From the sequence record NZ_CP048628.1: a stretch of DNA of 46,189 nt; one strand, written 5' to 3'. Positions 9,297 to 44,049 of the stretch are shown here, piece by piece; position 1 is the stretch's first letter; each line of letters starts with the position of its first letter. The notes below the pieces were generated by a model, which was not told the DNA's origin, made no database searches, and saw nothing but the letters and a program-made list of their open reading frames with translations. The position numbers were made by a program, and so were the translations under genes. Source of the DNA: a plasmid.

Positions 9297-10389
9297 ATGG
9301 CACTTCCAAAGAAAATACAAAATCAAAGAAAAGAATTAGTTGACAAAGTAGTAAAAGACATTGAAAGTGGAAAACCATTCTTTTGGGATAGTGGACACTA
9401 TGGTAAACAGCCTAGAAATCTTTTAAAAGCAATAAAAGGTGAGGATAACTATTATAAAGGTATAAATGCCATGCAACTTACAATAGCAGCTAGAGTTAAT
9501 GGATTTAAAGATAGTAGATGGGCTACATTTAAGCAGGCAGAAATGGCAGGAGGACATGTTAAAAAGGGTGCTAAAGGTACACATATAGAATATTGGCAAT
9601 ATACACAAGATGTAATGGAATTAAATCCAAAAACAGGTAAAAAAGAACCTGTTTTTGAGATAAATCCAGATACTGGAGAAAGAAAGAAAAAACAAATTAT
9701 GTTAGAGCATCCAATCGTTAAATCTTACGTCGTTTTTAATGGCGACCAGATAGAAGGCATTGAAAAAGAACAGTTACCTGTTATTAAACAAGAAGATAAA
9801 AATAAAAACATGGAAAACATGATTAAAAACAGTGAAGCTAAAATCTTTTTTTGATGAACTAAGTCAAAATTATTATTCACCTAATAAAGATGAAATACAT
9901 GTTGTCCCTAAAGAAAAGTTTAAGACTTTAGATAATTTTTACGCAACGGTAGCCCACGAGATAGCACATTCTACAGGTGCTAAAGGACGTCTTAATCGTG
10001 AAACTTTAAAAAATAATGATGGTTTTGGAAATGAAATTTATGCAAAGGAAGAACTTCGAGCAGAACTTACATCAATGTTTCTTCAACAACGTTATAATGT
10101 TAATTTTGATGAAAAGCATTATGAAAATCATGCAGCCTATCTGCAAAATTGGGCACAGGTGATAAAAAACGACCCGAACGAGATTTACAGGGCGGCCGCT
10201 GACGCCGAAAAAGCAATGAGTTATATAGAAACACGTATGATAAAGAAAAACCTTACAAAAGAGAAATCTGTGCAAAAAGAAACGGCACTTGAAAATAAGC
10301 CAGTTCAAAAGAAAATTATCAAGCAGAAAATCACAATGAAATTTGATACTCAAAAATCTAAATCAAAGGAAAGAACGCTTACAAGATAA
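9297..10389 (+). pseudogene. ardC: ArdC-like antirestriction protein (ssDNA-binding N-domain plus HExxH metalloprotease domain), split by a +1 frameshift in a T7 tract at 9846..9852
   Basis: ORF 9297..9854 (N-domain) and ORF 9832..10389 (VAHEIAHSTG = HExxH) are in adjacent frames. Deleting one T of the seven restores a single frame (..AKIFFDELSQN..). The C-terminus is KKIIKQKITMKFDTQKSKSKERTLTR. Confidence 0.6.
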
Positions 10390-19120: not shown

Positions 19121-19129
19121 ATAAACTAT

Positions 19130-19537
19130 ATGAGTATACAGAAATTGACGAAGATGGAACGCAAATATCGCATTTTGCAAGAAGAACAAAATGCAATTTT
19201 AAAAAGAATGCAAGAAGAAAAAAGAAATGCAAAAAAAAGGTTAGAAAGTGAGAGGTATAACTATATTATACAAGTGGTTAAAAGACTTAAATTGCCTATA
19301 GATAATCCAACAATTATTATAGGAGCTTTAGTTGAAGCTAAAAAGATTATAACTGAAAATAATACTGCCAAAATAAATGAATATATTGAAAAATATAGTT
19401 TATTTATTAAGGAAACAGAACAAATAGACATTGGGGATATTGAAAAGAATAGTAAAAATGAGAAGAATGATATATCTTCATCATCTTTAGAAGCTGAAGA
19501 TAAAGAAGAATATATAAAGGCTCTTGAAGGTGCTTAA
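19130..19537 (+). CDS. coiled-coil hypothetical protein inside the T4SS operon
   Basis: 135 aa, rich in charged residues with heptad-like repeats. Confidence 0.4.
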   Translation: MSIQKLTKMERKYRILQEEQNAILKRMQEEKRNAKKRLESERYNYIIQVVKRLKLPIDNPTIIIGALVEAKKIITENNTAKINEYIEKYSLFIKETEQIDIGDIEKNSKNEKNDISSSSLEAEDKEEYIKALEGA

Positions 19538-20525
19538 TATGAGTAAGAATGAAACATTAGATGTAATGTTTGGCAGACAAATAGTAGATTTTATGAATAG
19601 AGATGATATAACAGAAATTTATGTAAATGATGATGGTTATATAAGATATATGTCTCATAAAGAAGGTAAAGTAAAGACAAATATTATTTTAAAACCTGAA
19701 AAGATATTAGCTATTATTGAGCTTATTGCAGGGCAGGTTGGAAAAGTAATTAATGAAGAAATACCGTCTATTTCAGCTGAAATAAGTGGTTATGGGGCAC
19801 GTTTTCAAGGTGAGATTTCTCCTATTGTAAGAAATCCTCAATTTAATATTAGAAAAAAAGCTATAAAGATTTTCACGCTTGATGAGTATGTAAAAAATGG
19901 TACATTAACAAATTATTATAAAAAATACCTTGAAGAAGCTATTCGTAAAAGGAAAAATATTTTGGTTGTTGGTGGTACAGGAACAGGTAAAACAACATTT
20001 TTAAATGCTCTTTTAGATGCTATAGCTAAAATTTCACCATACCATCGAATAATATCGCTAGAGGACTTGCCGGAATTGCAATGTCCAACGGATGATTATT
20101 CACCTATGTATACAAAGCAAGAAACCGGTAAGGATAAAGTCGTTTATAACATGACAAGGTTACTTGCGGATTGTATGCGTCGTAGTCCCGATAGAATTAT
20201 TGTTGGGGAAGTTAGAGATGGTGCAGCTTATACTATGCTTAAAGCTTGGAATACAGGACATCCAGGCGGAGCATGTACCGTACATGCTAATGACGCAGTA
20301 AGTGGTTTAACACGTATTAAATCTTTGGCTCAAGAAGATAAAAATGCTACTGGAGATTTAAAGGAGCTTATAGGAGAAGCTATAGATGTTGTTGTTTCTA
20401 TTGTACATATAGATTTAGGAGGCGGTAAAAAATCTAGGAAAGTAAATGAAATGATTGAGGTTAAAACTTATAACAGTCATGATGATACTTATGTTTTAAA
20501 ACGTATTGAGGAGGATTTAACATGA
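19524..20525 (+). CDS. virB11: VirB11-family secretion ATPase
   Basis: Walker A VVGGTGTGKTTFLNALL; His box GEVRDGAAYTMLKAWNTGHPGGACTVHAN. Confidence 0.85.
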   Translation: MKVLNMSKNETLDVMFGRQIVDFMNRDDITEIYVNDDGYIRYMSHKEGKVKTNIILKPEKILAIIELIAGQVGKVINEEIPSISAEISGYGARFQGEISPIVRNPQFNIRKKAIKIFTLDEYVKNGTLTNYYKKYLEEAIRKRKNILVVGGTGTGKTTFLNALLDAIAKISPYHRIISLEDLPELQCPTDDYSPMYTKQETGKDKVVYNMTRLLADCMRRSPDRIIVGEVRDGAAYTMLKAWNTGHPGGACTVHANDAVSGLTRIKSLAQEDKNATGDLKELIGEAIDVVVSIVHIDLGGGKKSRKVNEMIEVKTYNSHDDTYVLKRIEEDLT

Positions 20526-23703: not shown

Positions 23704-24483
23704 ATGAAAAAAAAGTTTAGGCAGATTGGATTAGCCATAATTTTTAGTATATCTTTAACTGTACCAGCTGAAGCTGCTATTCCTGTAATTGATGACCAGA
23801 ATATAGCACAACAGTTAAAAACCTACACTGAAACCTTGAATGTTGTTAAAAATACAGCTGAACAAATATCCTTGCAACTTAAGGAGTTAATGGCCATGCC
23901 AGAAAATATTCTAAATGAATATAAACAAGCATTTAATGATAGTATAGCAGCTGTTAAAAATACACTTTCAAACTCGGATTTATTAGTAGATAAAGATGAG
24001 TGGGATGAATACTGGAAAGAAACTTATCCTAGAATTAATAGCGGTGATTATAAACAAACTGTGTGGAGCGAGCGAAGTATAAATGATACTTTACAAGAAA
24101 TAATGTCCATGAGAAATGAAGAAGATGTAAATTCTTATCATGAACTTATGGCAGAACTTGAAAAATCTAAGGTTAGATTACAGGATTTATTAGAGCAAAA
24201 TAAGACTGTAGAAGGTAATAAACAAGCACAGCAAATTGCAAATATGATAGCTACAGAAAAAGCTAACATAGATAGTATAAATACAGCAATCCAGGCTATA
24301 ACAGATAAAAACCAATTAATGCATCAGCAGGCAGAAGTTTTAAAAGCTCAAAATAGAAAAGCTGTTATAAATGCTGCTAAACAAGCAGAAGAAGAAACAT
24401 TATCACAAATGGAAAATGAAGTAATAGAAAAAGTACCTATTATTGATGATCCATTTGCTACTTATGGTAATGTAAGGTGGTAA
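23704..24483 (+). CDS. VirB5/TrbJ-like secreted T4SS protein
   Basis: Signal peptide; N-terminal AAIPVIDDQNIAQQL; alpha-helical; position between the VirB4 and VirB6 homologues; C-terminus VPIIDDPFATYGNVRW. Confidence 0.5.
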   Translation: MKKKFRQIGLAIIFSISLTVPAEAAIPVIDDQNIAQQLKTYTETLNVVKNTAEQISLQLKELMAMPENILNEYKQAFNDSIAAVKNTLSNSDLLVDKDEWDEYWKETYPRINSGDYKQTVWSERSINDTLQEIMSMRNEEDVNSYHELMAELEKSKVRLQDLLEQNKTVEGNKQAQQIANMIATEKANIDSINTAIQAITDKNQLMHQQAEVLKAQNRKAVINAAKQAEEETLSQMENEVIEKVPIIDDPFATYGNVRW

Positions 24484-24487
24484 TATT

Positions 24488-25633
24488 ATGGATTTTACAG
24501 ATACTAATTTTTTAGATAGTTTGCTTAATTTTTTTTATGAGCATAGTGTAACAGGTATGATACAATTACAACCTCATGCTTTTGAACTTGTATGTGTATT
24601 AGCTATCATAGATATTTGCTCTACATGGGCTTTATATGATGGTCAAATGCGAATGTCTTTCGTTATTAATAAAACAATGAAAGTTGGTTTTTTTTTACTT
24701 CTGATTGTAAATTGGGATACAATTAATTCTGCAATTTTGCGGTCGTTTGAGATTGCTGGTGCTACAGCTTCAGGTTTATCTAATATTGGTGCTGGAGATT
24801 GGATAAGTCCTAGCAAAATATTGGAAAGAGGATTTAATATATGTGGTACTTTGTTTAAAGATTTTCAGGATACGGGTATAACGGATAATGGTGGTATTGC
24901 TAGACTTTTTATGGATTTAATAGCTATAGCAATAACGATTGCTTCTTTCTTTTTTATATCGCTTCAAGTTTTGATAACTAAAATAGAATTTTGTATATTT
25001 TCTAGTCTAGGTGTAATTTTATTACCTTTTGGAGCTATTAGATTTACTTCTTTTTTATTTCAAAGAGTTGTTTCGGGTGTTTTTTCATTCGGTATAAAAT
25101 TGATGATTATGTATTTTCTTTTGGGTTTATTTGATACTTTATCTGGAGCATTAACCAGTTTTGAAGAAAATGTATCGTTTTCATCAATGTTGAAGATGGC
25201 ATTATCTTATGCGACACTTGCTTTTCTTGTTTGGAAATTACCTAATCTTGCGGCAAGTATGATGAATGGACAGCCTTCTATGGAAGCTGGAGATGTTGTT
25301 CGAGGTGCTACAACAGCTAAAAGTACAGTTGCTGGTGCTGTTGGTGGTGCAGTAGGAGCAGCTGGAGCAGTAAGTAGAGTAGCAGGAAAAACTGCTGCGG
25401 GATATGGCTTTGCTAATGCTACTATAAAGGCAGCACAAGCAAATATAGGTGTTCAGGGTGGAAGTGTTGCAGGAGAAGTTGCTAAAAATGTTGCTAGAAC
25501 AAGTTTTGCTAATTCTGCTATCGGTAAAGGGCTAATTAGAGGTGCAAATAGGGCAATGAACCAAATGGAAGATTATAAAAATCTTAAATCTGGTGAGTAT
25601 GCTACTAAACCGCAATCAAACCGTAATAGGTGA
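24488..25633 (+). CDS. VirB6/TrbL-like polytopic membrane protein with a Gly/Ala-rich C-terminal tail
   Basis: Multiple transmembrane helices; C-terminal low-complexity AGAVGGAVGAAGAV. Contains a T9 tract at 24688..24696. Confidence 0.6.
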   Translation: MDFTDTNFLDSLLNFFYEHSVTGMIQLQPHAFELVCVLAIIDICSTWALYDGQMRMSFVINKTMKVGFFLLLIVNWDTINSAILRSFEIAGATASGLSNIGAGDWISPSKILERGFNICGTLFKDFQDTGITDNGGIARLFMDLIAIAITIASFFFISLQVLITKIEFCIFSSLGVILLPFGAIRFTSFLFQRVVSGVFSFGIKLMIMYFLLGLFDTLSGALTSFEENVSFSSMLKMALSYATLAFLVWKLPNLAASMMNGQPSMEAGDVVRGATTAKSTVAGAVGGAVGAAGAVSRVAGKTAAGYGFANATIKAAQANIGVQGGSVAGEVAKNVARTSFANSAIGKGLIRGANRAMNQMEDYKNLKSGEYATKPQSNRNR

Positions 25634-25634
25634 T

Positions 25635-27449
25635 ATGCCTATGAAGAAAATAATTTTTATATGTTTAATAATTATTTTAATACCATTTAAGGTATTAGCT
25701 TCACCACCTATTATTGGTGGTGAAGTAACTTCTCCATATGGCCCTCGTGATGCAGGAGGAAGAGCTAGTACATTTCATAAGGGTATAGATGTGTATGTTC
25801 CTTCTGGCACTCCTATAGTTGCTCCAGCAAATGGTACAGTAAATCACGGAGCGGGCGGCGGTTATATTTATTGGACGGATATAACGCTGGAAGACGGCAG
25901 TTACTGGATGTTTGGCGACTGCTCATCAGACACGCTTTTATGCCAGACAGGATATGTTACGGAAGGAACAATAATAGGGTATACCGGCGGCGATGCCTAC
26001 GATGGGCCGCTTGGATATTCCACCGGGCCGCATGTGCATATAGAATACGGGCCGCTTGGTGAGTTCGGCAGCCGTGTTGACCCCGTACCGTATCTTGAAG
26101 CGCTTGGAATGGATTTAAGCGGAAATACCATGCCTTCAGGCGGCGGTGGTCCTGCTGTAATGGGACATGATAATGTAACGCTTCCATGGGGCGTTGAAAG
26201 TATGTATGAACTTGGAGAAAATATACAAGATATAATGCAACAGGTTGTTGAAGCTGCTGGTCGTGGCTTTGATTTTTTACAAGATGCTTGCTTTGCATTA
26301 TTACTTGTTCTATGTATTTTAGATTTAACGCTTCCAATGATGACAAGTGGTATGACTATTTCAATGCAGTTTGCCATAACTAAGGTAATGAAATATGGCT
26401 TTTTGATGTTTGTAATGCTAAACTGGCAAACAATTATAAATGACTTTTTTTTGTCGTTTGTAACGTCTGTTTCTACTACATTTGCTAATAACCCGGATAT
26501 AGGAAATGATGTATCTCAACCGCAAATGATATTACAAAAAGCAATTTTTATGGTAACACCAGCATTAAATAAAATAGCTAGTTTTGGCAGTTGGGATTTC
26601 TATACTAATTTATCAACGATTATTCCAATTTATCTTGCGACATTTATAACAATAGGCGTATTTTTTGTTCTTGCCTGTTATATAATGCTCGTTTACATTG
26701 AATTTTATGTAGTAGCAGCTCTTAGTATTTGTACGTTTCCTTTTTCAGCTTTTGGTTTTACAAAATTTATTGCTGAAGGAAGTTTAGGACATATTGTAAG
26801 TAACACGATAAAGTTAACTATTATTTCAATTATGGTTGGATTTTGTGTTGTATGTATTCGTGATGCCGAGCCTGGTGATATATTTACAGTGCAGACGCCA
26901 TCGGAGCAAGTAACAGGTACAGGAACGATAACAGGACCACCTGATTTAGTAGCATTGGCTACAGAAAAAGCTCAAAAGTATGGTATTCCAGTATCACTGT
27001 TTTTGGCACAAATACAACTTGAAAGTAGCTGGAACCCTAATGCGGTATCTGGGGCTGGTGCACAAGGATTAGGACAATTAATGCCTGGAACAGCAGCAGG
27101 ACTTGGCTGTTCCGATCCATTTAATCCAGAACAGAATTTAGAAGCCGCTGCTAAATACATGAAACAATTACATGATATGTATGGTGATTGGAATTATGCA
27201 TTAGCAGCTTATAATGGAGGACCTGGAAATGTAACAGCTGGTGAACCACTTCCAGGTTGGGCACAAGAATATATAGACCTTGTAAATGGTAATTTATCTG
27301 GTTCTTATACCGTAAATAATGGTATAAATTCAGAAGCCATGATTAAATTTATATTGATGTGCCTTTCTTTGATTGGACTTGCTTTTTTAACAGCAAGAAT
27401 ACCAACATCTTTGTTAAAAATGTTAGGTGGTAAATATGAATTGTCTTAA
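25635..27449 (+). CDS. tripartite T4SS protein: M23 metallopeptidase domain, VirB6-like polytopic domain and VirB1-like lytic transglycosylase (SLT) domain
   Basis: Signal peptide MPMKKIIFICLIIILIPFKVLAS. M23 motifs HKGIDVYVPSGTPIVAPANGTV and GPHVHIEY. Central transmembrane helices. SLT motifs QIQLESSWNPNAVSGAGAQGLGQLMP and AAYNGGPGNV. Track ORF 25593..27449. Confidence 0.7.
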   Translation: MPMKKIIFICLIIILIPFKVLASPPIIGGEVTSPYGPRDAGGRASTFHKGIDVYVPSGTPIVAPANGTVNHGAGGGYIYWTDITLEDGSYWMFGDCSSDTLLCQTGYVTEGTIIGYTGGDAYDGPLGYSTGPHVHIEYGPLGEFGSRVDPVPYLEALGMDLSGNTMPSGGGGPAVMGHDNVTLPWGVESMYELGENIQDIMQQVVEAAGRGFDFLQDACFALLLVLCILDLTLPMMTSGMTISMQFAITKVMKYGFLMFVMLNWQTIINDFFLSFVTSVSTTFANNPDIGNDVSQPQMILQKAIFMVTPALNKIASFGSWDFYTNLSTIIPIYLATFITIGVFFVLACYIMLVYIEFYVVAALSICTFPFSAFGFTKFIAEGSLGHIVSNTIKLTIISIMVGFCVVCIRDAEPGDIFTVQTPSEQVTGTGTITGPPDLVALATEKAQKYGIPVSLFLAQIQLESSWNPNAVSGAGAQGLGQLMPGTAAGLGCSDPFNPEQNLEAAAKYMKQLHDMYGDWNYALAAYNGGPGNVTAGEPLPGWAQEYIDLVNGNLSGSYTVNNGINSEAMIKFILMCLSLIGLAFLTARIPTSLLKMLGGKYELS

Positions 27450-27966
27450 AAAATACAATGGTATAGTCGTGCATGCACGACTATACTCATTGAAATTTTG
27501 TAAAATTATTCTATTTTTTATTATTTTTATAACAATATTGTATCTATGTATGGGAACAATATTTTATAAAAATATATCACCATCTGCACCTCGTGGAATA
27601 TATATGATAGCACCCAATCAGAATTTAGATTATGGAGATTTTGTTGTTGTTAAACTTCCTGTAGATGTTCCTATATTAAATGTACAAAAAGGATATCCCA
27701 TGATAAAAAAAGTACAGGGTTTGCCAGGAGATGTTTATAGAGTAGGTGAGGATGCTGTAGAAATTCATGGTCGAAAATATAAGATATACCATATTGACGG
27801 TCTGCCGCAGAAAAATACTATCGGAGAATACACAGTACCAAAAGGACAGATTTTATTTTTGAATGACCCTGATATATCTTTTGATTCGCGGTATCTTGGA
27901 ACAATTTCCACTAAAAACATTGAAAAGAAAGTGATACTTGTTTGTTCATTTGATGAAAAGGATTGA
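27427..27966 (+). CDS. traF: TraF-like conjugative signal peptidase (S26 family; pilin maturation)
   Basis: N-terminal transmembrane segment and NISPSAPRGIYMI (S.S.P.G.Y catalytic-Ser motif); the end of a T4SS operon is the expected position for a pilin-maturation peptidase. Confidence 0.6.
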   Translation: MVNMNCLKKYNGIVVHARLYSLKFCKIILFFIIFITILYLCMGTIFYKNISPSAPRGIYMIAPNQNLDYGDFVVVKLPVDVPILNVQKGYPMIKKVQGLPGDVYRVGEDAVEIHGRKYKIYHIDGLPQKNTIGEYTVPKGQILFLNDPDISFDSRYLGTISTKNIEKKVILVCSFDEKD

Positions 27967-29751: not shown

Positions 29752-31848
29752 ATGAAAGTTTTTATAGCAGAAAAACCTGATATTGGAAAAGCAATAGCTA
29801 ATTATTTATGGAAAAATGATTATAAAAAACAGCAAGGATATTTTGAAAAAGATGGTGATGTAATTGTAACTTGGGCTTATGGACATATTTTGAGACTTGC
29901 AACACCTCAAGAATATGATGAGAAATATAAATTTTGGAAAAATTATCCTATAATTCCTAAAAAATGGCAAATTAAACCTTCTGCTAACACTAAAAAGCAA
30001 TTAGATGTAATACTACAGCTATTAAAAAAGGCAGATATAGTTATAAATGCTGGCGATCCAGATAGAGAAGGACAACTTTTAATTGATGAAATTTTAGATT
30101 ATGCAGGTTATAAGGGAACAGTACAAAGGCTATTATTAAACGCCAAAGATGATGTAAGTCTTAAAAGGGCTTTTGAAAATATCCAGGATAATAATAATTT
30201 TAAAAACTTGTATATGGCAGGACTTGGAAGAGCTCATGCCGACTGGCTTGTCGGTATGAACTTAACAAGAGCCTACAGCGTAAGCGCCAGAAAATATGGT
30301 TATAATACAATTTTTCGTATTGGTCGTGTAAAAATACCTACACTTGCACTTGTTGTAAATCGTGAAAAAGAGATACAAAATTTTAAGTCTACTAAATATT
30401 ATGAGCTAATAGGCAGTTTTACAAAGGATAATTTGCCCTTTAAAGCACAGTTAAAGCCGTCAGACAAGTTCATAAACGCTGAAAATAGAATAAAAGATAA
30501 GGCGATATTACAAGCTATAAAATTAAAATTACACAACGCTGAAATAACAGTAAAAGACATACAGAAAAAGAAAATTATAGAATATCCACCTCTTCCATAT
30601 TCACTTGATACTTTACAAGTAGAAGCAAATAAAGTATATGATTTTTCGCCCAAAACTGTACTTGATACTGTACAGCAGTTGTATGAGAAGAAATTTGTAT
30701 CTTATCCACGTTCTGATTGTAATTATATACCTGAAGCACAATTTGAAGATGCTAAAAAAATCTTTGATATATTAGATATTCCAGGAAAAGACAAAGCAAA
30801 TTTAGCGTTAAAATCTAAAGCATGGAATGATAAAAAGATAACAGCTCACCATGCCATAATACCTACTATAGTTAAAGCTGAAGAACTTGATAATACCCAG
30901 CAGAAAATCTATGAAATGATAGCCAAACGCTATATATTACAGTTCTTTTTACCATGTATAGCCGAAAAAACAACATTCGTTTTATCTGTTGCCGATGAAA
31001 TCTTTACAGGAAGCGGGCAAATTATCATGGAAGCAGGTTTTAAAGCCTTCGAAGGAAAAGAAACAAGCGATATAAACATTTTGCCAGAACTTAAAGTAGG
31101 CGACAAAATCGACAAAGGCGATTATTTAATCCAGGAAAAGAAAACGACGCCGCCGAAACGTTTCACGGAAGGAACGCTTCTTGCAGCTATGGCAAATATT
31201 TATAAATATGTGGATGCTAAAAATCCTAATCGGGAAAAATTAAAAGAAGTAAAAGGTATTGGGACACCTGCAACGCGAGATACAATAATTGCCGAGCTTC
31301 AAGATACTGTTTCTAAAGGCAGGGATATAGAGCCTTGCTTGAAAAAAGTAAAAAGAGAACTTGTACCTACAGCTTTTGGTATAAATTTAATTGAAAATAT
31401 AGATAAATCTTTAACTTATCCTGATACTACCGCAGAAATGGAATATAAACTCTCTGAAATAGCTGAAGGAAAACAATCTTTGCAGGATTTTGTAGATAAT
31501 GTAATAAATATGGTCTATGACAATATAAAATTTGCGGAAAATAAAGAGTTTCCATTCTATAGAGATAATGATAGTATTACTTGTCCTATATGTAATAAAG
31601 GGCAAATTGTTAGAAAATATTCAGCAAAAATAGATAAATATTTTCATATGTGTAATAATCCAGATTGTGTTTCTCCTGTAACAGGGAAAAAACTTTTTTT
31701 TGAAGATAACAACGGTAAGCCGATTATAGCCAAATGTCCAAACTGCAAAAATCTATTAGTCAAGAAACTGGGAAAAAACGGCGAGTTCTGGCTTTGCCAG
31801 AAATGCAATAAAACATATAACGATAAAAACGGAAAACCGGAGATTTAG
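29752..31848 (+). CDS. topB: DNA topoisomerase III (type IA) with C-terminal zinc-ribbon repeats
   Basis: N-terminal Toprim region (MKVFIAEKP..GHIL), the conserved SYPRSDC region holding the catalytic Tyr, and C-terminal CxxC...CxxC pairs. Confidence 0.8.
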   Translation: MKVFIAEKPDIGKAIANYLWKNDYKKQQGYFEKDGDVIVTWAYGHILRLATPQEYDEKYKFWKNYPIIPKKWQIKPSANTKKQLDVILQLLKKADIVINAGDPDREGQLLIDEILDYAGYKGTVQRLLLNAKDDVSLKRAFENIQDNNNFKNLYMAGLGRAHADWLVGMNLTRAYSVSARKYGYNTIFRIGRVKIPTLALVVNREKEIQNFKSTKYYELIGSFTKDNLPFKAQLKPSDKFINAENRIKDKAILQAIKLKLHNAEITVKDIQKKKIIEYPPLPYSLDTLQVEANKVYDFSPKTVLDTVQQLYEKKFVSYPRSDCNYIPEAQFEDAKKIFDILDIPGKDKANLALKSKAWNDKKITAHHAIIPTIVKAEELDNTQQKIYEMIAKRYILQFFLPCIAEKTTFVLSVADEIFTGSGQIIMEAGFKAFEGKETSDINILPELKVGDKIDKGDYLIQEKKTTPPKRFTEGTLLAAMANIYKYVDAKNPNREKLKEVKGIGTPATRDTIIAELQDTVSKGRDIEPCLKKVKRELVPTAFGINLIENIDKSLTYPDTTAEMEYKLSEIAEGKQSLQDFVDNVINMVYDNIKFAENKEFPFYRDNDSITCPICNKGQIVRKYSAKIDKYFHMCNNPDCVSPVTGKKLFFEDNNGKPIIAKCPNCKNLLVKKLGKNGEFWLCQKCNKTYNDKNGKPEI

Positions 31849-32472: not shown

Positions 32473-32634
32473 ATGACTAATAATAATCTTAAAAAAAATG
32501 TTATTTCTGCAATAAAAAGTTGTGAGTTAGAAGGCTTTGTTTATACAAAAGAGGAAAAACAAGTTTTTAATAGAATTGCTTCAGGAGAAATAACAGTAGA
32601 TGAAGCAAGAAAGATTTTTAAAAGGATGTCATAA
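32473..32634 (+). CDS. VbhA/FicA-like small antitoxin candidate (53 aa) carrying the inhibitory motif SxxxEG
   Basis: MTNNNLKKNVISAIKSCELEGFVYTKEEKQVFNRIASGEITVDEARKIFKRMS; its stop overlaps the Fic start (taATGg); not in the ORF track because it is under 60 aa. Confidence 0.55.
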   Translation: MTNNNLKKNVISAIKSCELEGFVYTKEEKQVFNRIASGEITVDEARKIFKRMS

Positions 32635-33272
32635 TGGATGAGTATGTATTAAAGAATAAATTAGGTTTAAAAGATACACAAACCTTAAATAAATATGAAC
32701 GACGATTAAGTGCATTAAGAATTATTTCTCTTAAAGAAAAATCTTTTAAGAAATTTGATTTTTCAACCTTAAAAAGAATGCACAAGGAAATTTTTCAAGA
32801 CATTTATCAATGGGCTGGAACAACAAGAAATGTTAATATTTCCAAGGGAAAAACACTTTTTTGTCCAGTTGAAAATATAAATGTTTATGCTGATACAATT
32901 TTTAAAAAGTTAGAAAAAGAAAATTATTTAAAAGGGCTTTCTCAAGATAAGTTTTGCAAAAAAGCAGCTGAATTATTTGGAGATATAAATGCTTTACATC
33001 CTTTTAGAGAAGGTAATGGTCGTACTCAAAGAGAGTTTATTTATCATTTAGCTAAAAATTCTGGTTATGAATTGGACTTAAATCAATTAGATAAAACTAA
33101 ATATATGACGGCCTCTATTGAATCAATACTGACAAGTAATGAGAAAATGGAAAAGTTGATGAAATCTATAATAAAGCCGTTAGCTAAAGAAAAAGTCAAA
33201 ATCCGAAAACAGAAGATAGTGATGAAGTTTCCGGACAAGGATAAAAGTAATAATCGCAATATGGAACGCTGA
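32634..33272 (+). CDS. Fic-domain protein (AMPylation-type toxin) with C-terminal tail ..KQKIVMKFPDKDKSNNRNMER
   Basis: Canonical Fic motif HPFREGNGRTQREF (HPFx[DE]GNGRxxR). Confidence 0.8.
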   Translation: MDEYVLKNKLGLKDTQTLNKYERRLSALRIISLKEKSFKKFDFSTLKRMHKEIFQDIYQWAGTTRNVNISKGKTLFCPVENINVYADTIFKKLEKENYLKGLSQDKFCKKAAELFGDINALHPFREGNGRTQREFIYHLAKNSGYELDLNQLDKTKYMTASIESILTSNEKMEKLMKSIIKPLAKEKVKIRKQKIVMKFPDKDKSNNRNMER

Positions 33273-33347
33273 ATATATACAATATATAGTATATTTTCTT
33301 TCGACCATAAGATATAAAAACTATATTTAGTATATGGAGAATACAAA

Positions 33348-33539
33348 ATGATTAGTAATGTAGAACAAAAGCGGAGACGTGAAATGGTTGAATATAGTAT
33401 AGCTACCTGTGAATTAGAAGGATGTATTATAAGTGATGAATACAGAAGATTATCAGAAAAATATATTAAAGGTGAAATGACACTAGAAGATTTAAGTAAG
33501 GAAGTTCGGAAAAATCTTCCCTCAAATAAAAGCAGGTGA
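33348..33539 (+). CDS. second VbhA/FicA-like small protein (TCELEG motif)
   Basis: MISNVEQKRRREMVEYSIATCELEGCIISDEYRRLSEKYIKGEMTLEDL.. contains [ST]xxxE[GN]. Confidence 0.45.
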   Translation: MISNVEQKRRREMVEYSIATCELEGCIISDEYRRLSEKYIKGEMTLEDLSKEVRKNLPSNKSR

Positions 33540-33543
33540 TATA

Positions 33544-33954
33544 TTGAAATACTTATCTGGTATATTTGCATTGAATTTAATGTGTGATTTAGATACATTC
33601 GGCGACTGGCATACATCAGCGATTGATTGGAAGAATAAGATAAATTTTTGGAATAGTAGTCATAGTATATGGGGAGATTACGGCATAGAAAAAAACAGGA
33701 CTATTCCGGAAAACAAAGGAAAATTTAATGTTGCTAATCATATTAGAGCACTACTTGACTTAATCAGCATAGGAGATTTTCCTACAGCACAAGGAATGCG
33801 AGATAATTTTATCTGCAATGATAAATATACGCCAGAAATTTTTTCTAAAGTCAGTATGTTGAAGAACAATAAAAACTGGCCGGAAATAGATAAATTTATG
33901 GGTAAAGAATATATGATGCAATGGGTGAAATATAAAAAAGAGGTTAGTTTATGA
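33544..33954 (+). CDS. hypothetical protein upstream of the HipA-like kinase; HipS-like role possible
   Basis: 136 aa; overlaps the kinase gene start (ATGA). Confidence 0.35.
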   Translation: MKYLSGIFALNLMCDLDTFGDWHTSAIDWKNKINFWNSSHSIWGDYGIEKNRTIPENKGKFNVANHIRALLDLISIGDFPTAQGMRDNFICNDKYTPEIFSKVSMLKNNKNWPEIDKFMGKEYMMQWVKYKKEVSL

Positions 33955-34928
33955 TAATAGATTTTACTGATATAGCAAAAAATAATCCTAGTTTCAGAGC
34001 TTACGGAGGAGCTAACGGCATAAAAAAAGGAATACTATTTCATGGAAAACCGTATATGCTGAAGATAGAACATCGTGGAAAGAAGAAAAATAAAGATTAT
34101 AAGCATAGCGTATTATCAGAATATATTTCTTCAAAAATATATTCCATGTTGGATATTCCCACTCAAGAAGTTGTTCTCGGCAAGATTTATGATAATGGAA
34201 AAGAAAAATTATGCGTAGCTTGTAAAGATTTCAAAGAAAAAGGCGAATATCTGTATGAATTTTTAAATATAAAAAACTCCGTCCTTACGGAAAATTCCTC
34301 CAACGGCTCAGGTACGGAACTAGCGGAAATTTTAGAAGCCATAGATAAGCAGAACTTTTGTCCTGCAAGTGAAGTAAAAGAAAGATTTTGGGAAATGTTT
34401 GTCGTCGATACTTACTTAGGAAACTTTGACAGACATAACGGGAATTGGGGCTTTTTAGTTAATGAAAATACAGGGATTAAACACCTGGCGCCTGTTTTTG
34501 ATTGCGGGTCTTGCTTATATCCTGCACCTACGGATGAACAGCTACAAGTATTTTTAAACGACCCCAAAGAAATGGAAAAAAGAGTATATGTTTTTCCAAA
34601 CTCAATAATAGAAGAAAACGGTAAAAAAATAAATTACCATGAGTTCTTACAATCCACTTTAAATGAAGATTGTTTGAAAGCCGTAAGAAAAATGATACTC
34701 AAAATAGAAGCAAAATCTAATGATATAAAAGACTTTATTAATCACATTGAAGTATTATCTCCGGTTAGAAAGAAATTTTATACACAGATTTTAAGAATGC
34801 GTAGAGAACGGATATTGCAACCGGCATTAGAGCGTGCAAATAAATTGATGAAGAAGTCGTATAAGCAAAAAATAGTGATGAAGTTTCCGGACAAAGATAA
34901 AAGTAATAATCGCGTTATGAACAGATAA
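33951..34928 (+). CDS. HipA/HipT-like Ser/Thr kinase toxin with C-terminal tail ..KQKIVMKFPDKDKSNNRVMNR
   Basis: Catalytic region ERFWEMFVVDTYLGNFDRHNGNWGFLVNENTGIKHLAPVFDCGS parallels the HipA pattern ..vFN.lignTDDHlKNfS...g.w.LsPaYD.. Confidence 0.6.
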   Translation: MIIDFTDIAKNNPSFRAYGGANGIKKGILFHGKPYMLKIEHRGKKKNKDYKHSVLSEYISSKIYSMLDIPTQEVVLGKIYDNGKEKLCVACKDFKEKGEYLYEFLNIKNSVLTENSSNGSGTELAEILEAIDKQNFCPASEVKERFWEMFVVDTYLGNFDRHNGNWGFLVNENTGIKHLAPVFDCGSCLYPAPTDEQLQVFLNDPKEMEKRVYVFPNSIIEENGKKINYHEFLQSTLNEDCLKAVRKMILKIEAKSNDIKDFINHIEVLSPVRKKFYTQILRMRRERILQPALERANKLMKKSYKQKIVMKFPDKDKSNNRVMNR

Positions 34929-40529: not shown

Positions 40530-41900
40530 ATTACCAATAACGCCGTAAAGCCTCTTGCTTTAGCTATGGGGATATAAGGCGTGTCCGCCGAATTTGCGTA
40601 AGCAATTGAAGGTGGACTTTTAATTTGTTATAAATATAATGATTTGTTATTATATAATTATGAATAAATAAAAGGCAGGTGATTGTAGTGAAAACATATT
40701 GTTTTAAACTTTATAAGGCAAAAAGAAATAGAAAACTTAATAAAGTTATTAATATATCTGGAATTATCTACAATCACTGCATTGCTCTGCATAAAAGATA
40801 TTATCGTTTATTTAAAAAATCTCTTAATATCTATAAGCTTCAAAAACATTTAACCAAACTTAAGAAAATAGACAGATTTAGCTATTTTAAAGAAGTAGGC
40901 TCGCAAGCTATTCAAGACATAACTCAGAGAATAGACCGTGCTTATAAATTGTTTTTTAGAAATTTAAAACATAAAATTCGTACAGCACCACCATCGTTTA
41001 AAAAGATACGAAAATATAAATCATTCACTTTAAAACAAGCTGGTTGGAAACTTTTAAAAGGTAATGTTATAGAGATTAATAAACAAAAATACAGATATTT
41101 TAAAAGCAGAGATATTGAAGGAACAGTTAAAACAATAACTATTAAACGAGATACTTTAGGTGATATATATCTTTATTTTGTCTGTAAAACTAATGAGAAT
41201 GAAGTTTTAGTAAGAACAGGTAACAGCGTCGGTTATGACTTTGGACTTAAACAGTTTTTAACAGCATCAGATAATGAAAATATACAAGCACCCTTATTTT
41301 TTAAGCAAAATACTAATACTATAAAAAAAGCTAATAGAATATTATCTCGAAAAAAGAAAGGTTCTAATCATCGCAGATTAGCTAAAATAGCTTTTGCTAG
41401 ACTGCACAAGAAAATAGCTAATCAAAGAAAAGATTTTCATTTTAAATTGGCTAGAAAAATTTGTGCAAAATATGCTTTAATTTGCATTGAAGATTTAAAT
41501 ATCAAAGGAATGCAAAAACGTTGGGGAAGAAAAATATCTGACTATGGATTTGCTGAATTTATAAAAATTCTTGAATATGAAGCAAGAAAATTTAGCTCAG
41601 TAGTGCAAAAGATAGATAGATACTATCCAAGCTCGCAAATTTGCCATGTCTGTGGTACCAAAAATCCCGAAACAAAAAATTTAGCAGTTCGTAAGTGGGT
41701 TTGCGCAAAGTGCAAAATCAGCCACGATAGAGATAGAAATGCAGCTATAAATATATGGAAGGTTGGGACATCAACCTTCTTTGGAGAGATACAGTAAGAC
41801 CTGCTATTTTAGTAGGCAAGTATCGTTTGTATCCAAGAATCCCCTGTCTTTAGGCATGAGGAGTATGTCAAAAAATTTTTAAACTTGCAATTTGAGAATT
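40530..41900 (+). mobile_element. IS200/IS605-family element carrying tnpB only (IS1341-like); ends approximate
   Basis: GC-richer, structured flanks on both sides of tnpB (40530..40680 and 41800..41900); the right end may encode the guide (omega/re) RNA scaffold. Confidence 0.4.
40679..41797 (+). CDS. tnpB: TnpB (OrfB) RNA-guided nuclease of the IS605 family
   Basis: 372 aa; C-terminal zinc finger CHVCGTKNPETKNLAVRKWVCAKCKISHDRDRNAAINI; RuvC-like segments. Confidence 0.75.
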   Translation: MIVVKTYCFKLYKAKRNRKLNKVINISGIIYNHCIALHKRYYRLFKKSLNIYKLQKHLTKLKKIDRFSYFKEVGSQAIQDITQRIDRAYKLFFRNLKHKIRTAPPSFKKIRKYKSFTLKQAGWKLLKGNVIEINKQKYRYFKSRDIEGTVKTITIKRDTLGDIYLYFVCKTNENEVLVRTGNSVGYDFGLKQFLTASDNENIQAPLFFKQNTNTIKKANRILSRKKKGSNHRRLAKIAFARLHKKIANQRKDFHFKLARKICAKYALICIEDLNIKGMQKRWGRKISDYGFAEFIKILEYEARKFSSVVQKIDRYYPSSQICHVCGTKNPETKNLAVRKWVCAKCKISHDRDRNAAINIWKVGTSTFFGEIQ

Positions 41901-41942
41901 TAAAATTCTTTTGCTATAATGTATATCTATAAATAAGGAGGT

Positions 41943-42791
41943 GTGGATATGGCAAAGAACAAACTGGTTGCCCCTGTTGTCAAATGGGTTGGAGGAAAAC
42001 GCCAGTTGTTAGATGAGATTACGCCTCTACTTCCTAAGCGGATCACTTCTTATTGCGAGCCTTTTTTGGGTGGTGGAGCCGTTTTATTTTCTATTCAGCC
42101 ATCCAAAGCAATCGTAAATGACTTGAATGAGGATTTGATTACGGTTTACGAAATTATTCGTGACGATGTTGAATCTCTTATTGCCGATCTCAAAAAACAC
42201 GAAAACACTTCAGAGTATTTTTATGCAATACGAGATTTAGATAGAGATAAAGCAACCTATCAAGCCATGTCAAAGGTTGAGCGTGCATCACGATTAATTT
42301 ATTTAAACAAAACTTGTTTTAATGGTTTATTTCGGGTTAATTCATCAGGGGAGTTTAATTCTCCTTTTGGTCATTATAAAAATCCTAACATTGTAAACGA
42401 ACCAGTTCTGCGGGCAGTAAGTAAGTATTTTTCGTCTGCTAATATCGCATTTTGCAATGAAGATTTTGCTGTGACTTTAAGTAGAGTTGGCAAGGGTGGA
42501 TTTGTGTATCTTGACCCACCGTATGATCCTGTTTCTGATACATCAAGTTTCACCGGCTATAATAAAGGAGGATTTGACAGAAACGAGCAAATCAGACTAA
42601 AGCAATATTGTGACGATCTGACGCAGCGAGGCATTAAATTTATGCTATCCAATTCTGCTACAGAGTTCATAAAAGAACTGTATAAGGACTACAACATATC
42701 CATTGTACAAGCTAAGAGGGTAATCAATTCAGATGCAAGCAAGCGTGGGGCAATAGAGGAGGTACTAATTAGAAACTATGGGACTAAATGA
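41943..42791 (+). CDS. Dam-family (D12 class) N6-adenine DNA methyltransferase
   Basis: VVKWVGGKRQLL (motif I region) and YLDPPYDP (DPPY catalytic motif). The region is visibly GC-richer than the plasmid backbone. Confidence 0.8.
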   Translation: MDMAKNKLVAPVVKWVGGKRQLLDEITPLLPKRITSYCEPFLGGGAVLFSIQPSKAIVNDLNEDLITVYEIIRDDVESLIADLKKHENTSEYFYAIRDLDRDKATYQAMSKVERASRLIYLNKTCFNGLFRVNSSGEFNSPFGHYKNPNIVNEPVLRAVSKYFSSANIAFCNEDFAVTLSRVGKGGFVYLDPPYDPVSDTSSFTGYNKGGFDRNEQIRLKQYCDDLTQRGIKFMLSNSATEFIKELYKDYNISIVQAKRVINSDASKRGAIEEVLIRNYGTK

Positions 42792-44049
42792 TACCGCATG
42801 GGAAAGTCTATTTGACAAGTATCATATTCTTGCTGAGATTGAGCAAAATGGACAGTTTATCATTTCAGCAAATCAGATAAAAGAGTTCAGAGAACCTCGG
42901 TTAATGACCAAGTTTGACCATAAAATAAATCTCCCCAATATTTTCACATCCAACAACTTATCAATTTTGCCAATAACTCGTGGAAATTATGTTATTTCTT
43001 CTTTTTCGGCGTATAAGGAGTTTGACGAGCCATCCCAAGATGTGCAGAAAATATCAATACCAGCACATATCCAAAGTTTAATGCCGCAGTTTCTTGTGAG
43101 CGAAGCTATTGCGTTAAATTGTGCTAATGCTTGTGGTATACTTAATGACTTTTTAGAGGATGATGAGCTTGTTTCAACAGTTAGCGGTCGCATGAGTTCC
43201 GGTAGTTTTGAATTTAGCATAAACACCGCTTTAGGAACGAAAAATATTACCGTAAGCAATTCTCAAATAGAAATTGATGCAGCATACGAAGGTATCCATT
43301 ATCTTTCTTTATTTGAGGCTAAGCGGGATTTGTCGGATGATTTTCTTATTCGTCAACTTTATTACCCATTCCGTGTTTGGAGTGAACGAGTGACAAAAAC
43401 AGTAAAGTCCATTTTCTTGATTTTTTCAAATGGTATGTTCAATTTATATCAATATCAGTTTGAAGATCCACAGAACTATAATTCTCTTAAATTGGTGAAG
43501 CAAAAAAATTATGTAATTGTAACAGAGATTTGCTTGGCTGATATTGAAAATCTTTTGAGAACTGTTCCTTTGGTGCAAGAACCTGACATATCATTCCCGC
43601 AAGCGGATCGTATGTCTCGAATAGTCAATCTTATTGAGCTATTAAATGAAAAACCGATGACGAAGCAAGACATTACATCAGAGTATGCTTTTGATGAACG
43701 CCAAACGAATTATTATACAGACGCAGGTCGGTATCTGGGGCTTATTGACAAAACCCATGATGAAGATGGTAATATTCTATTCCACCTTTCGACCTGCGGA
43801 CACCGTATAATGAGTTTGGAGTATAAGGAACGCCAGCTTGCACTTGTAACTCAAATATTGATGCACAAAGTATTCAACGAGACATTAAAACTCCATTTGC
43901 AATATGGAGAGATGCCGGATAAACAAACTATTATCCAGATTATGAAACGCTCTAATCTATATCATGTTGAATCCGACAGCACATATTTGCGACGTTCCTC
44001 TACAGTTGTTGGTTGGGTAAATTGGATTCTAGGAATTATCGAAGAATAA
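42778..44049 (+). CDS. candidate restriction endonuclease partner of the methyltransferase (unrecognised family)
   Basis: 423 aa; overlaps the methyltransferase stop; shares the GC-richer composition. Confidence 0.3.
   Translation: MGLNDTAWESLFDKYHILAEIEQNGQFIISANQIKEFREPRLMTKFDHKINLPNIFTSNNLSILPITRGNYVISSFSAYKEFDEPSQDVQKISIPAHIQSLMPQFLVSEAIALNCANACGILNDFLEDDELVSTVSGRMSSGSFEFSINTALGTKNITVSNSQIEIDAAYEGIHYLSLFEAKRDLSDDFLIRQLYYPFRVWSERVTKTVKSIFLIFSNGMFNLYQYQFEDPQNYNSLKLVKQKNYVIVTEICLADIENLLRTVPLVQEPDISFPQADRMSRIVNLIELLNEKPMTKQDITSEYAFDERQTNYYTDAGRYLGLIDKTHDEDGNILFHLSTCGHRIMSLEYKERQLALVTQILMHKVFNETLKLHLQYGEMPDKQTIIQIMKRSNLYHVESDSTYLRRSSTVVGWVNWILGIIEE

Follow-up and report, generated by a model that had tools for sequence, protein, structure and literature searches.

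A conserved M23–VirB6-like–SLT fusion protein of a Megamonas plasmid and a probable recombination tract in its M23 core

In the type IV secretion systems (T4SSs) of Gram-negative bacteria, VirB1 is a soluble periplasmic SLT protein that is presumed to open the peptidoglycan locally for channel assembly. The Gram-positive VirB1 homologues are membrane-anchored multidomain proteins, such as PrgK of pCF10, which combines LytM, muramidase, and CHAP domains, and TraG of pIP501, which combines SLT and CHAP domains; the LytM and CHAP domains of PrgK appear to be regulatory (from the sections of the 2025 review PMC12857230 that treat these proteins). Extended and duplicated VirB6 proteins are known in Rickettsia and Anaplasma, as mentioned in parts of PMC2653234 and PMC7648143. 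The gene considered here, at 25635..27449 (+) of the Megamonas funiformis JCM 14723T plasmid CP048628 (NZ_CP048628.1), encodes an M23 peptidase, a VirB6/TrbL-like membrane module, and an SLT domain in one polypeptide, and a GC-rich patch lies over its M23 part. The window is the whole sequence of this plasmid that was analysed, 46,189 nucleotides. Full-text literature searches returned no description of the protein architecture and no NCBIfam model covers the fusion, which appears to be undescribed and to carry generic annotation only.

CP048628 is a circular extrachromosomal element of 46,189 bp and 29.4% GC from an isolate genome, assembled from Oxford Nanopore Technologies (ONT) and Illumina reads, and the genome announcement suggested that the element is conjugative (PMC7163012). 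The computed GC content of the window is 29.4% over 46,189 bp. Pfam annotation confirms, at the level of gene content, that the plasmid is conjugative: it harbors genes for a MobA/MobL relaxase, ArdC, VirB8, VirB9/CagX, VirB10/TrbI, VirD4, VirB11, TrbC/VirB2, VirB4, a TrbJ-like protein, TrbL, the fusion, and a TraF-like S26 peptidase. With Pfam and NCBIfam combined, the T4SS genes of the window run in the order VirB8-VirB9-VirB10-VirD4-VirB11-VirB2-VirB3-VirB4-TrbJ-TrbL-[fusion]-TraF. The fusion carries the sole SLT and the sole M23 domain of the plasmid, and hence would be its VirB1-equivalent by default.

The fusion protein and its family

The fusion is encoded by a single, uninterrupted open reading frame (ORF; 25593..27449, +). 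The protein has 604 aa when translated from the ATG at 25635 and 602 aa from the start that NCBI uses (25641); another public annotation starts at 25599. The product (QIB61280.1/EHR31892.1/WP_008540184.1) is labelled 'transglycosylase SLT domain-containing protein' by NCBI. Pfam detects Peptidase_M23 (PF01551) at aa 47-138 (E = 2.8e-11; 43.9 bits against a cut-off of 28.7), TrbL/VirB6 (PF04610) at aa 233-406 (1.9e-14; 54.4 bits against 25.9; profile positions 10-178 of 215), and SLT (PF01464) at aa 442-534 (4e-27; 94.6 bits against 21.3). The gene as a whole (25635..27449, +) would thus encode a signal peptide, an M23 domain, a polytopic VirB6/TrbL-like module with the SLT domain inserted, and a C-terminal transmembrane (TM) helix.

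The protein begins with a predicted Sec signal peptide (MPMKKIIFICLIIILIPFKVLA, with probable cleavage before SP; 25635..25700, +) that coincides with a hydropathy peak over aa 1-31, and an N-terminal hydrophobic leader is common to the family in an alignment of 34 members. The M23 (LytM-type) metallopeptidase domain follows at 25707..26114 (+) and is recognized by Pfam, PDB profiles, and Foldseek. Its zinc-binding and catalytic motifs, H48-x3-D52 (25776-25790, +) and H133-x-H135 (26031-26039, +), have verified coordinates and read H48-KGI-D52 and H133-V-H135 in the window; all four residues are invariant among the 34 family members. Profile matches in the PDB include 9gy1, 3slu, 6muk, and LytM, with E-values down to 7e-20, and Foldseek with the AlphaFold model returns 9gy1 (E = 1e-6, TM-score on the target 0.76) and lysostaphin 4qpb (0.69), so that StM23, LytM, and lysostaphin are among the structural relatives found by the two methods. 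A Gly/Pro-rich linker of low confidence (aa 164-184; predicted local distance difference test score, pLDDT, below 50; 26124..26186, +) connects the M23 domain to the membrane module.

The VirB6/TrbL-like helical membrane module spans aa 187-409 (26193..26861, +), as indicated by Pfam, BLASTP, and the helices of the model. Directly upstream of the fusion lies the gene for a canonical P-type TrbL/VirB6 of 381 aa (24488..25633, +), to which the module is 28% identical over 189 aa (BLASTP, E = 1e-16); as judged from this alignment, the module is a paralogue of the upstream TrbL. The NCBIfam TrbL equivalog TIGR02783 has a cut-off of 128.85 bits, which the upstream gene passes with 137 bits and the fusion fails with 57.5. 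The fusion is therefore read as an accessory, divergent paralogue and not as the VirB6 of the system.

The SLT lytic transglycosylase domain (aa 424-560; 26904..27314, +) sits in the last loop of the VirB6-like module. It contains the catalytic pair E463-S464 (27021-27026, +) together with the GLGQLMP and AYNGG motifs, and E463, S464, Q481, Y526, N527, and G529 are invariant among the 34 family members. MltC, Slt70, and MltF are matched by PDB profiles, and MltD, Slt, and MltE by Foldseek. Acidic linkers surround the domain. It is followed by the C-terminal TM helix (aa 566-597; 27330..27425, +), which corresponds by homology to the final TM helix in TrbL and in family members that lack SLT, and by a K/R-rich tail of 7 residues. 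BLASTP aligns the helix after the SLT domain with the next helix of TrbL. When the SLT-less members and TrbL are aligned to the fusion, both sides match around a clean gap of ~150 aa exactly at the SLT domain, and the C-terminal helix and a 'GGK' tail are conserved across this alignment. Because the gap has matching flanks, the SLT domain is an insertion in the last loop of an M23-TrbL-like protein rather than a C-terminal appendage. A sequence-only reading of this DNA had placed the SLT domain behind the VirB6-like segment; the domain does come after most of the module, but it precedes the module's last TM helix. Flanked by TM helices in this way, it differs from the soluble periplasmic protein by which Gram-negative VirB1 (GAMMA class) is defined, and it may work like VirB1 without being a canonical VirB1.

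The architecture is not confined to this plasmid. A search of 5.8 billion proteins recovered more than 35 clusters at 90% identity that have M23, TrbL, and SLT domains, a similar length, and 47-86% identity. The named members come from Selenomonas noxia, Propionispira raffinosivorans, Schwartzia succinivorans, and Selenomonadaceae metagenome-assembled genomes, and all are annotated 'transglycosylase SLT domain-containing protein'. Among 1.84 billion representatives at 50% identity, an exhaustive search gave only 65 proteins at E<=1e-30. About 15 of them align over their full length, and about 25-30, of 440-470 aa, consist of M23 and the TrbL-like module only; Pfam scans of a spread of the 65 confirm this gradation of domains. 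Some database proteins are without M23 (P0039, P0040, P0049). The sequence-only reading of three domains in one polypeptide is upheld by the single ORF and by the recurrence of the architecture in these clusters (more than 35 at 90% identity, about 15 at 50%), which leave no room for a frameshift artefact. Its description of the fusion as unusual is apt when set against textbook T4SSs, but the fusion is the conserved state of a Selenomonadaceae family of plasmids and integrative and conjugative elements (ICEs).

Gene order supports a role in the transfer apparatus. Related loci share the order TrbI, VirD4, VirB11, TrbC, VirB3, VirB4, TrbJ-like, TrbL, fusion, TraF, and in all ten of the relatives' loci for which gene tables were read (10/10) the fusion lies between TrbL and TraF. 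In the window, the TraF-like S26 signal peptidase gene (pilin maturation; 27427..27966, +) overlaps the 3' end of the fusion gene, an order that is kept in relatives. On the evidence of these alignments and gene tables, the fusion is a real, conserved conjugation protein of the Selenomonadaceae plasmid/ICE family.

Among plasmids, the closest useful relative is found in Veillonella rogosae pVr3468 (L146, NZ_CP110419.1, record positions 18570-19964). It encodes WP_265139151.1, a 464-aa 'M23 family metallopeptidase' that has M23 and a VirB6-like module without SLT and lies in a T4SS cluster downstream of a VirB6-like gene. The plasmid itself is from an oral Veillonella and is typed as non-mobilizable in PLSDB. 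A blastn search of annotated plasmids and phages with the fusion gene gave no match, and tblastn against plasmids found no record that covers >=80% of the protein, the Veillonella M23-VirB6-like relative being the only useful one. A profile search of genome contigs with the family alignment returned 80 generic SLT loci of Rhodobacterales and others (L005-L084) that are irrelevant to the fusion. The M23-VirB6-like architecture is presumed to be the oldest because it is the broadest (about 25-30 clusters at 50% identity, including the Veillonella plasmid). Presumably, then, the M23-VirB6-like fusion is ancestral in this Negativicutes T4SS family and the SLT domain was inserted later.

The GC-rich tract in the M23 core

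In 200-nt windows over 25800-26199, GC rises to 0.49-0.545, against 0.294 for the plasmid. The tract delimited below (25806..26145, +; ~340 bp) has 52.4% GC, compared with 34.8% for the remaining gene. The excess is found at synonymous sites: in 30-codon windows across codons about 61-165, GC at third codon positions (GC3) is 0.37-0.60 where 0.18-0.26 is expected, and the whole tract has a GC3 of 0.46 against about 0.18 expected. The best 40-codon window (z=6.2) is the top of the 2075 windows on the plasmid and has the highest GC3 excess, with weaker excesses (z=4-5) in several other plasmid genes. A GC-rich patch over the M23 domain, approaching 50%, had been noted from the letters alone, with uniform GC named as the contrary outcome. 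Windowed GC and codon usage are non-uniform, the patch is a real synonymous-site anomaly and the strongest on the plasmid, and its peak is higher than stated, at 52-55%.

Comparison with relatives resolves the patch further. In codon alignment, the locus L001 (86% aa identity, 30% GC) has no GC3 peak; within the patch, the two proteins are 83-97% identical while third positions agree at 23-50%, compared with 60-100% elsewhere. A protein search with the patch peptide led to much closer plasmids, L088 and L089-91, which are 95-100% identical to the window up to both patch edges and 73-82% inside, the differences in the patch being nearly all third positions with A/T in the relative and G/C in the window. 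Against the common low-GC allele, the tract has 74 differences in 340 bp, of which 62 are at third positions; G/C in the window outnumbers the opposite state 47:10, and the dense synonymous differences run from 25847 to 26145. The encoded peptide is 93% identical to that of the low-GC allele, whose GC3 is 0.19. By the Nei-Gojobori method, synonymous divergence from L088 (dS) is 0.036 in the 3' 434 codons and 0.26 in the first 57 codons, and over codons 58-170 the proportion of synonymous differences (pS) is saturated at 0.74; nonsynonymous divergence (dN) rises from 0.007 in the 3' part to 0.06 in the tract.

Two short contigs of higher GC, L092 (45%) and L093 (40%), show the converse pattern, as they are 56-80% identical to the window outside the patch and 80-95% inside. 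Maximum chi-square analysis of the triplet of window, L088, and L092 places breakpoints at 25805 and 26145 (chi-square 110; reached in 0/300 permutations). Informative sites that unite the window with L092 rather than with L088 number 41:13 inside the tract and 15:175 outside, and identity matrices show the same switch. Throughout the family, tract GC3 tracks the GC3 of the rest of the gene (r=0.94, n=43), and the outliers are the window-type, L097, and L107 alleles; entered into this fit, the window's tract GC3 of 0.46 points to a donor backbone of about 48% GC. The patch is thus very probably a homologous-recombination (gene-conversion-like) tract from a related plasmid of higher GC.

The recombination with a GC-richer relative that the sequence-only reading proposed therefore stands, but not its acquisition of the M23 domain: M23 is present in every family member, including the closest low-GC plasmids, and only an internal 300-340 bp was replaced. 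Its word 'recent' fits in so far as the tract is unameliorated and 100% identical on three contigs; the allele is nevertheless widespread, with the product on about 139 contigs. As these comparisons show, the GC-rich patch is unrelated to the origin of the fusion.

Several alleles of the segment circulate. A metagenome scan with the tract peptide gave 52 loci. On three independent contigs, one at 342x (L094-L096), the tract is identical at 339/339 positions with a GC of 0.52, and the flanks are 97.5-99.9% identical to the window, a difference of 0.1-2.5%. Eleven loci (L088, L089, L099-L106, L140) are 78% identical in the tract, with a tract GC of 0.41-0.42, and 98.5-98.8% identical downstream; L090/L091 carry the same low-GC allele. 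L097 is 99% identical to the window downstream, and its 25806-26450 segment is 100% identical to L098 (37% GC) and L092 (45% GC contig). L107 is 100% identical to the window over 26150-26450, and its 25635-26144 segment is 99-100% identical to L108/L093 (about 40% GC). For these two sister alleles, source-type backbones are therefore among the sampled loci. L107 and the window have a common right breakpoint near 26145, and the linker at 26124..26186 holds this breakpoint in both. All four alleles occur among named proteins of the Megamonas species M. funiformis and M. rupellensis. Judged from these mosaics, the M23 segment has been replaced at least three times independently.

A single in-frame stop interrupts the gene in some relatives: L088 has TGG->TGA at the invariant W185 (codon 26187-26189 on the window), and L089-L091 have CAG->TAG at Q104 (codon 25944-25946, inside the tract). 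L140 has a frameshift in the fusion gene; most alleles are intact. These lesions divide the gene into an M23 ORF and an ORF for the TrbL-like module with SLT. Recoding of TGA or TAG is unnecessary to explain the stops of L088 and L089, since each is a single transition in a locus that otherwise uses the standard code. Recurrent pseudogenisation of M23 that drives recombinational repair was also considered and is not established, the low-GC alleles being mostly intact.

The tract is not the only such exchange. Median identity of the window to L088 is 97%, and their 16 kb in common is interrupted by about 15 short divergent tracts. Tracts biased toward G/C in the window occur in the VirD4 gene at 16826-17176 (41:16) and 17776-17926 (11:2) and in the topoisomerase III gene at 30843-31187 and 31687-31837, where they coincide with secondary GC3 anomalies. 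Short-patch exchange is, on these comparisons, pervasive in this plasmid family. Smaller GC-rich patches had also been noted elsewhere on the plasmid, and those of the VirD4 gene prove to be window-specific divergent tracts with a G/C bias.

Two further observations concern the borders of the fusion gene. The interval 27266-27700 is 97-99% identical to L001 in an alignment that averages 83% and is, by this pattern, another recent exchange, one that reaches from the end of the fusion gene into the beginning of the TraF-like gene. From 24331 to 25265, an interval that takes in the end of the TrbJ-like gene and the greater part of TrbL, the window is only 61-77% identical to L088, while L100, L103-L106, and L089 are about 95% identical to the window over 24800-25800. 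By this contrast, the canonical VirB6 gene is also mosaic among these plasmids.

Proposed role, alternative explanations, and plasmid context

The fusion would be the only peptidoglycan-remodelling T4SS component of the plasmid. After the Sec signal peptide, an N-terminal M23 endopeptidase would cut peptide cross-links, and the SLT domain in the last loop would cut glycan strands. With four membrane passes between the enzyme domains and a cytoplasmic tail, both catalytic domains would face the periplasm, a topology that we infer. Both hydrolases would then be tethered to the inner-membrane platform of the T4SS, where they could make local openings in the cell wall through which the Trb-type channel and pilus of a diderm Firmicute would be assembled. 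On the tract comparisons, the resident low-GC M23 core was replaced by the orthologous segment from a related plasmid or ICE, probably one adapted to a GC-richer host (predicted about 45-50% GC), and this replacement left the protein almost as it was while it rewrote nearly every synonymous site.

Several points weigh against this account. Hydropathy gives an ambiguous count of TM helices; the predicted topology draws also on the positive-inside rule and on the helices at 187-237, 244-284, 326-373, 377-409, and 566-597 of an AlphaFold model with a pLDDT of 75. The VirB6-like module scores below the NCBIfam TrbL cut-off and so is, on this profile, not a second TrbL, and the top 50 Foldseek PDB matches, obtained with the whole model, include no solved VirB6, the list being dominated by the two soluble domains. 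The link of the fusion to conjugation is deduced from sequence and gene context. The nonsense and frameshift alleles (L088, L089-91, L140) are evidence that loss of the M23 part, or of the fusion itself, is possible, if only transiently. As for the tract, its donor was not found by protein search, contig look-ups, or the metagenome scan, where the best whole-tract identity was 86% (L092/L097/L098). Since the right-hand 150 bp are 90-95% identical to L093/L108 in spite of this overall value, the tract may itself be mosaic, and its source and age are estimates from such matches. Neutrality of the swap is assumed.

The alternative that survives best is an adaptive swap, in which the M23 core is a selected exchangeable cassette that serves to match host peptidoglycan, to evade inhibitors, or to repair alleles; we consider it rather unlikely. 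Selection would account for the at least three independent replacements and the common breakpoint in the linker. Four tract alleles occur on near-identical Megamonas backbones, the right breakpoint near 26145 is common to the window allele and L107, the tract covers codon 104, where L089-91 have their stop, and its sequence is the same (100%) on backbones up to 2.5% apart. However, the about 15 divergent tracts in 16 kb extend across the whole T4SS region, so that there need be nothing special about the M23 segment. Only about 8/113 residues vary between the alleles, none of them catalytic. Recombination would find good homology in the conserved coding core, and the common breakpoint adjoins a 33-nt stretch that is identical in the window and the common low-GC allele. 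The low-GC alleles, moreover, are mostly intact.

The proposal that the fusion represents an undescribed class of T4SS cell-wall subunits of diderm Firmicutes and that its M23 core is a selected exchangeable cassette, both together, is improbable on the same scale. If it were true, at least four alleles would be shuffled between plasmids of hosts that differ in GC. Nonsense alleles would then represent loss and recombinational replacement repair, and the cassette could tune conjugation to the wall of the recipient or the donor.

It is very unlikely that the whole M23 domain was recently captured from a higher-GC organism and fused to a VirB6-SLT protein. The GC-rich stretch does lie inside M23, and the database proteins without M23 cited above would fit such a capture. 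Yet no architecture is more widespread than M23-VirB6-like, which is presumably also the oldest, and M23 is colinear in the closest low-GC relatives. The first 57 codons, with H48 and D52 among them, precede the tract and match the low-GC allele at 93% identity.

A role as an antibacterial T4SS effector of the Xanthomonas/Stenotrophomonas X-Tfe type, instead of an assembly factor, has a similarly small probability. Bacteria-killing T4SSs deliver effectors of M23 and lysozyme/SLT type, as described in parts of PMC6536674 and PMC8262851. The fusion, by contrast, has a predicted Sec signal peptide and a polytopic VirB6-like core that ends in a TM helix. Its gene lies inside a mating-pair-formation operon, between TrbL and TraF, and the plasmid has the relaxase and coupling protein typical of conjugation. 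The C-terminus, a TrbL-homologous TM helix with a 7-residue tail, leaves no room for an XVIPCD domain, although no search aimed at this domain or at an immunity gene was made.

The Gly/Pro/Ala-rich composition of M23 is an extremely unlikely cause of the patch by itself, that is, with no foreign DNA. With the codon usage of the other plasmid genes, amino acid composition predicts a GC of 0.35-0.48 in 30-codon windows here, and two neighbouring stretches are purely compositional: the Ala/Gly-rich tail of TrbL (25199-25500; GC about 0.45, GC3 0.11) and the SLT region (26850-27100; GC 0.45, GC3 0.21). The M23 tract (25806-26145; GC 0.52, GC3 0.46) is unlike both and cannot be a composition artefact, because its GC3 is far above the expected value of about 0.18. 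Near-identical plasmids encode a 93%-identical peptide at a GC3 of 0.19, and third positions make up 62/74 differences.

Equally remote is the idea that the synonymous changes exist for the sake of an antisense gene, a structured RNA, an internal promoter, or another element embedded in the gene. The patch is overlapped by two antisense ORFs of 126-129 aa (25957..26346 and 25997..26377, -), and a third ORF lies in another + frame (25871..26062). The products are not conserved between alleles, stops cut them within the tract in L088/L089, and the nearest relatives of the patch are orthologous segments of GC-richer plasmids. The ORFs are evidently by-products of coding strand composition; they had been listed as three spurious antisense ORFs, and all are spurious, two of them antisense.

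An assembly or sequencing chimera of co-occurring related plasmids, to which the co-circulation of several segment alleles in gut metagenomes and the read-pair scale of about 340 bp might point, is excluded because the allele is present in a cultured type strain sequenced with ONT and Illumina and, with both junctions and at 339/339 positions, in three independent metagenome assemblies, while the exact product occurs on about 139 contigs and in two independent type-strain assemblies (EHR31892.1 being the older draft).

The remainder of the plasmid carries genes for topoisomerase III, Fic, HipA, ArdA, ParA, a resolvase, an IS605-type TnpB, and a Dam-type methyltransferase according to Pfam. The ArdC anti-restriction gene is split into overlapping ORFs for the ArdcN domain (9297..9854) and a metallopeptidase domain (9832..10389) by a frameshift at a T7 homopolymer near 9846-9852; this could be a pseudogene, a slippage-prone site, or a leftover sequencing error. 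The IS605-type TnpB gene (40679..41797) adjoins genes for the Dam-type methyltransferase (41943..42791) and a DUF6996/6997/7226 protein (42778..44049), the latter two with a GC3 of ~0.32 compared with ~0.17 for the plasmid. The interval 40679-44049 looks like an inserted GC-richer module, which may account for the 46 kb here against ~38-40 kb in relatives.

Downstream of the topoisomerase gene, at 32634-34928 and in the relatives L002, L086, and L089, are VbhA/Fic toxin-antitoxin-like pairs, sometimes duplicated, and a HipA-like kinase gene, with copy numbers that differ among relatives. The 76.6 kb contig ODBF01000064.1 (L104/L105) contains two copies of the fusion gene 38,267 bp apart, which suggests a concatemeric assembly of a circular plasmid of ~38.3 kb; several more contigs of the same plasmid family are 38.6-40.2 kb long.

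Comparison with known systems

Mosaic genes arise by short-patch homologous recombination between diverged relatives, as in mosaic pbp/penA alleles. Like these, the tract is a short block of high divergence with a switched nearest relative inside a near-identical gene. It differs from them in that no selective agent is known, the protein has hardly changed, and base composition is the visible signature. The tract is ordinary plasmid mosaicism, unusually well resolved and not conceptually new. It is visible because of the contrast in composition, and the locus provides a clean example of short-patch recombination between human-gut plasmids of hosts that differ in base composition. A GC spike in an AT-rich replicon can be part composition and part ancestry, and caution is needed in reading it; GC3 and close relatives separate the two.

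The fusion invites comparison with several T4SS proteins. VirB1, TrbN, and P19 likewise have an SLT domain with a catalytic Glu-Ser and are encoded in a T4SS operon, but VirB1-type proteins are soluble, whereas the SLT domain of the fusion sits in a loop of a polytopic VirB6-like protein and is combined with M23. PrgK and TraG, also of Firmicute hosts, resemble the fusion in that each is a membrane-anchored T4SS protein in which a glycan-cleaving domain is joined to a peptidase or LytM/M23-type domain. Unlike the fusion, they have no VirB6 module as their base and work on the outside of a monoderm cell; the fusion is anchored by a VirB6/TrbL paralogue and lacks CHAP. Its M23 metal and catalytic residues are intact, and its host is diderm, with VirB9/VirB10 outer-membrane components.

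The VirB6 families of Rickettsiales share with the fusion the TrbL/VirB6 Pfam domain and the presence of a second VirB6-like gene next to the canonical one. The extensions of the fusion differ from those of the extended Rickettsiales VirB6 proteins in being two peptidoglycan hydrolase domains, one N-terminal and one in a loop, and the fusion is below the TrbL equivalog threshold. The SLT-less M23-VirB6-like proteins (WP_265139151.1 and the metagenomic P0300, P0266, and P0294) have the same N-terminal M23, TrbL-like core, and C-terminal helix without the ~150-aa insertion; identity to the fusion is 27-29% for the Veillonella protein, P0300, and P0294, and 52% for P0266.

The fusion would represent a third T4SS solution to the peptidoglycan problem, a VirB6 paralogue with an endopeptidase and a lytic transglycosylase, which is neither a soluble VirB1 nor an anchored hydrolase of the Gram-positive type and occurs in phylogenetic Firmicutes that have an outer membrane. 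Its architecture is a variant of known T4SS peptidoglycan hydrolases and VirB6 paralogues that combines features of the Gram-negative and Gram-positive types.

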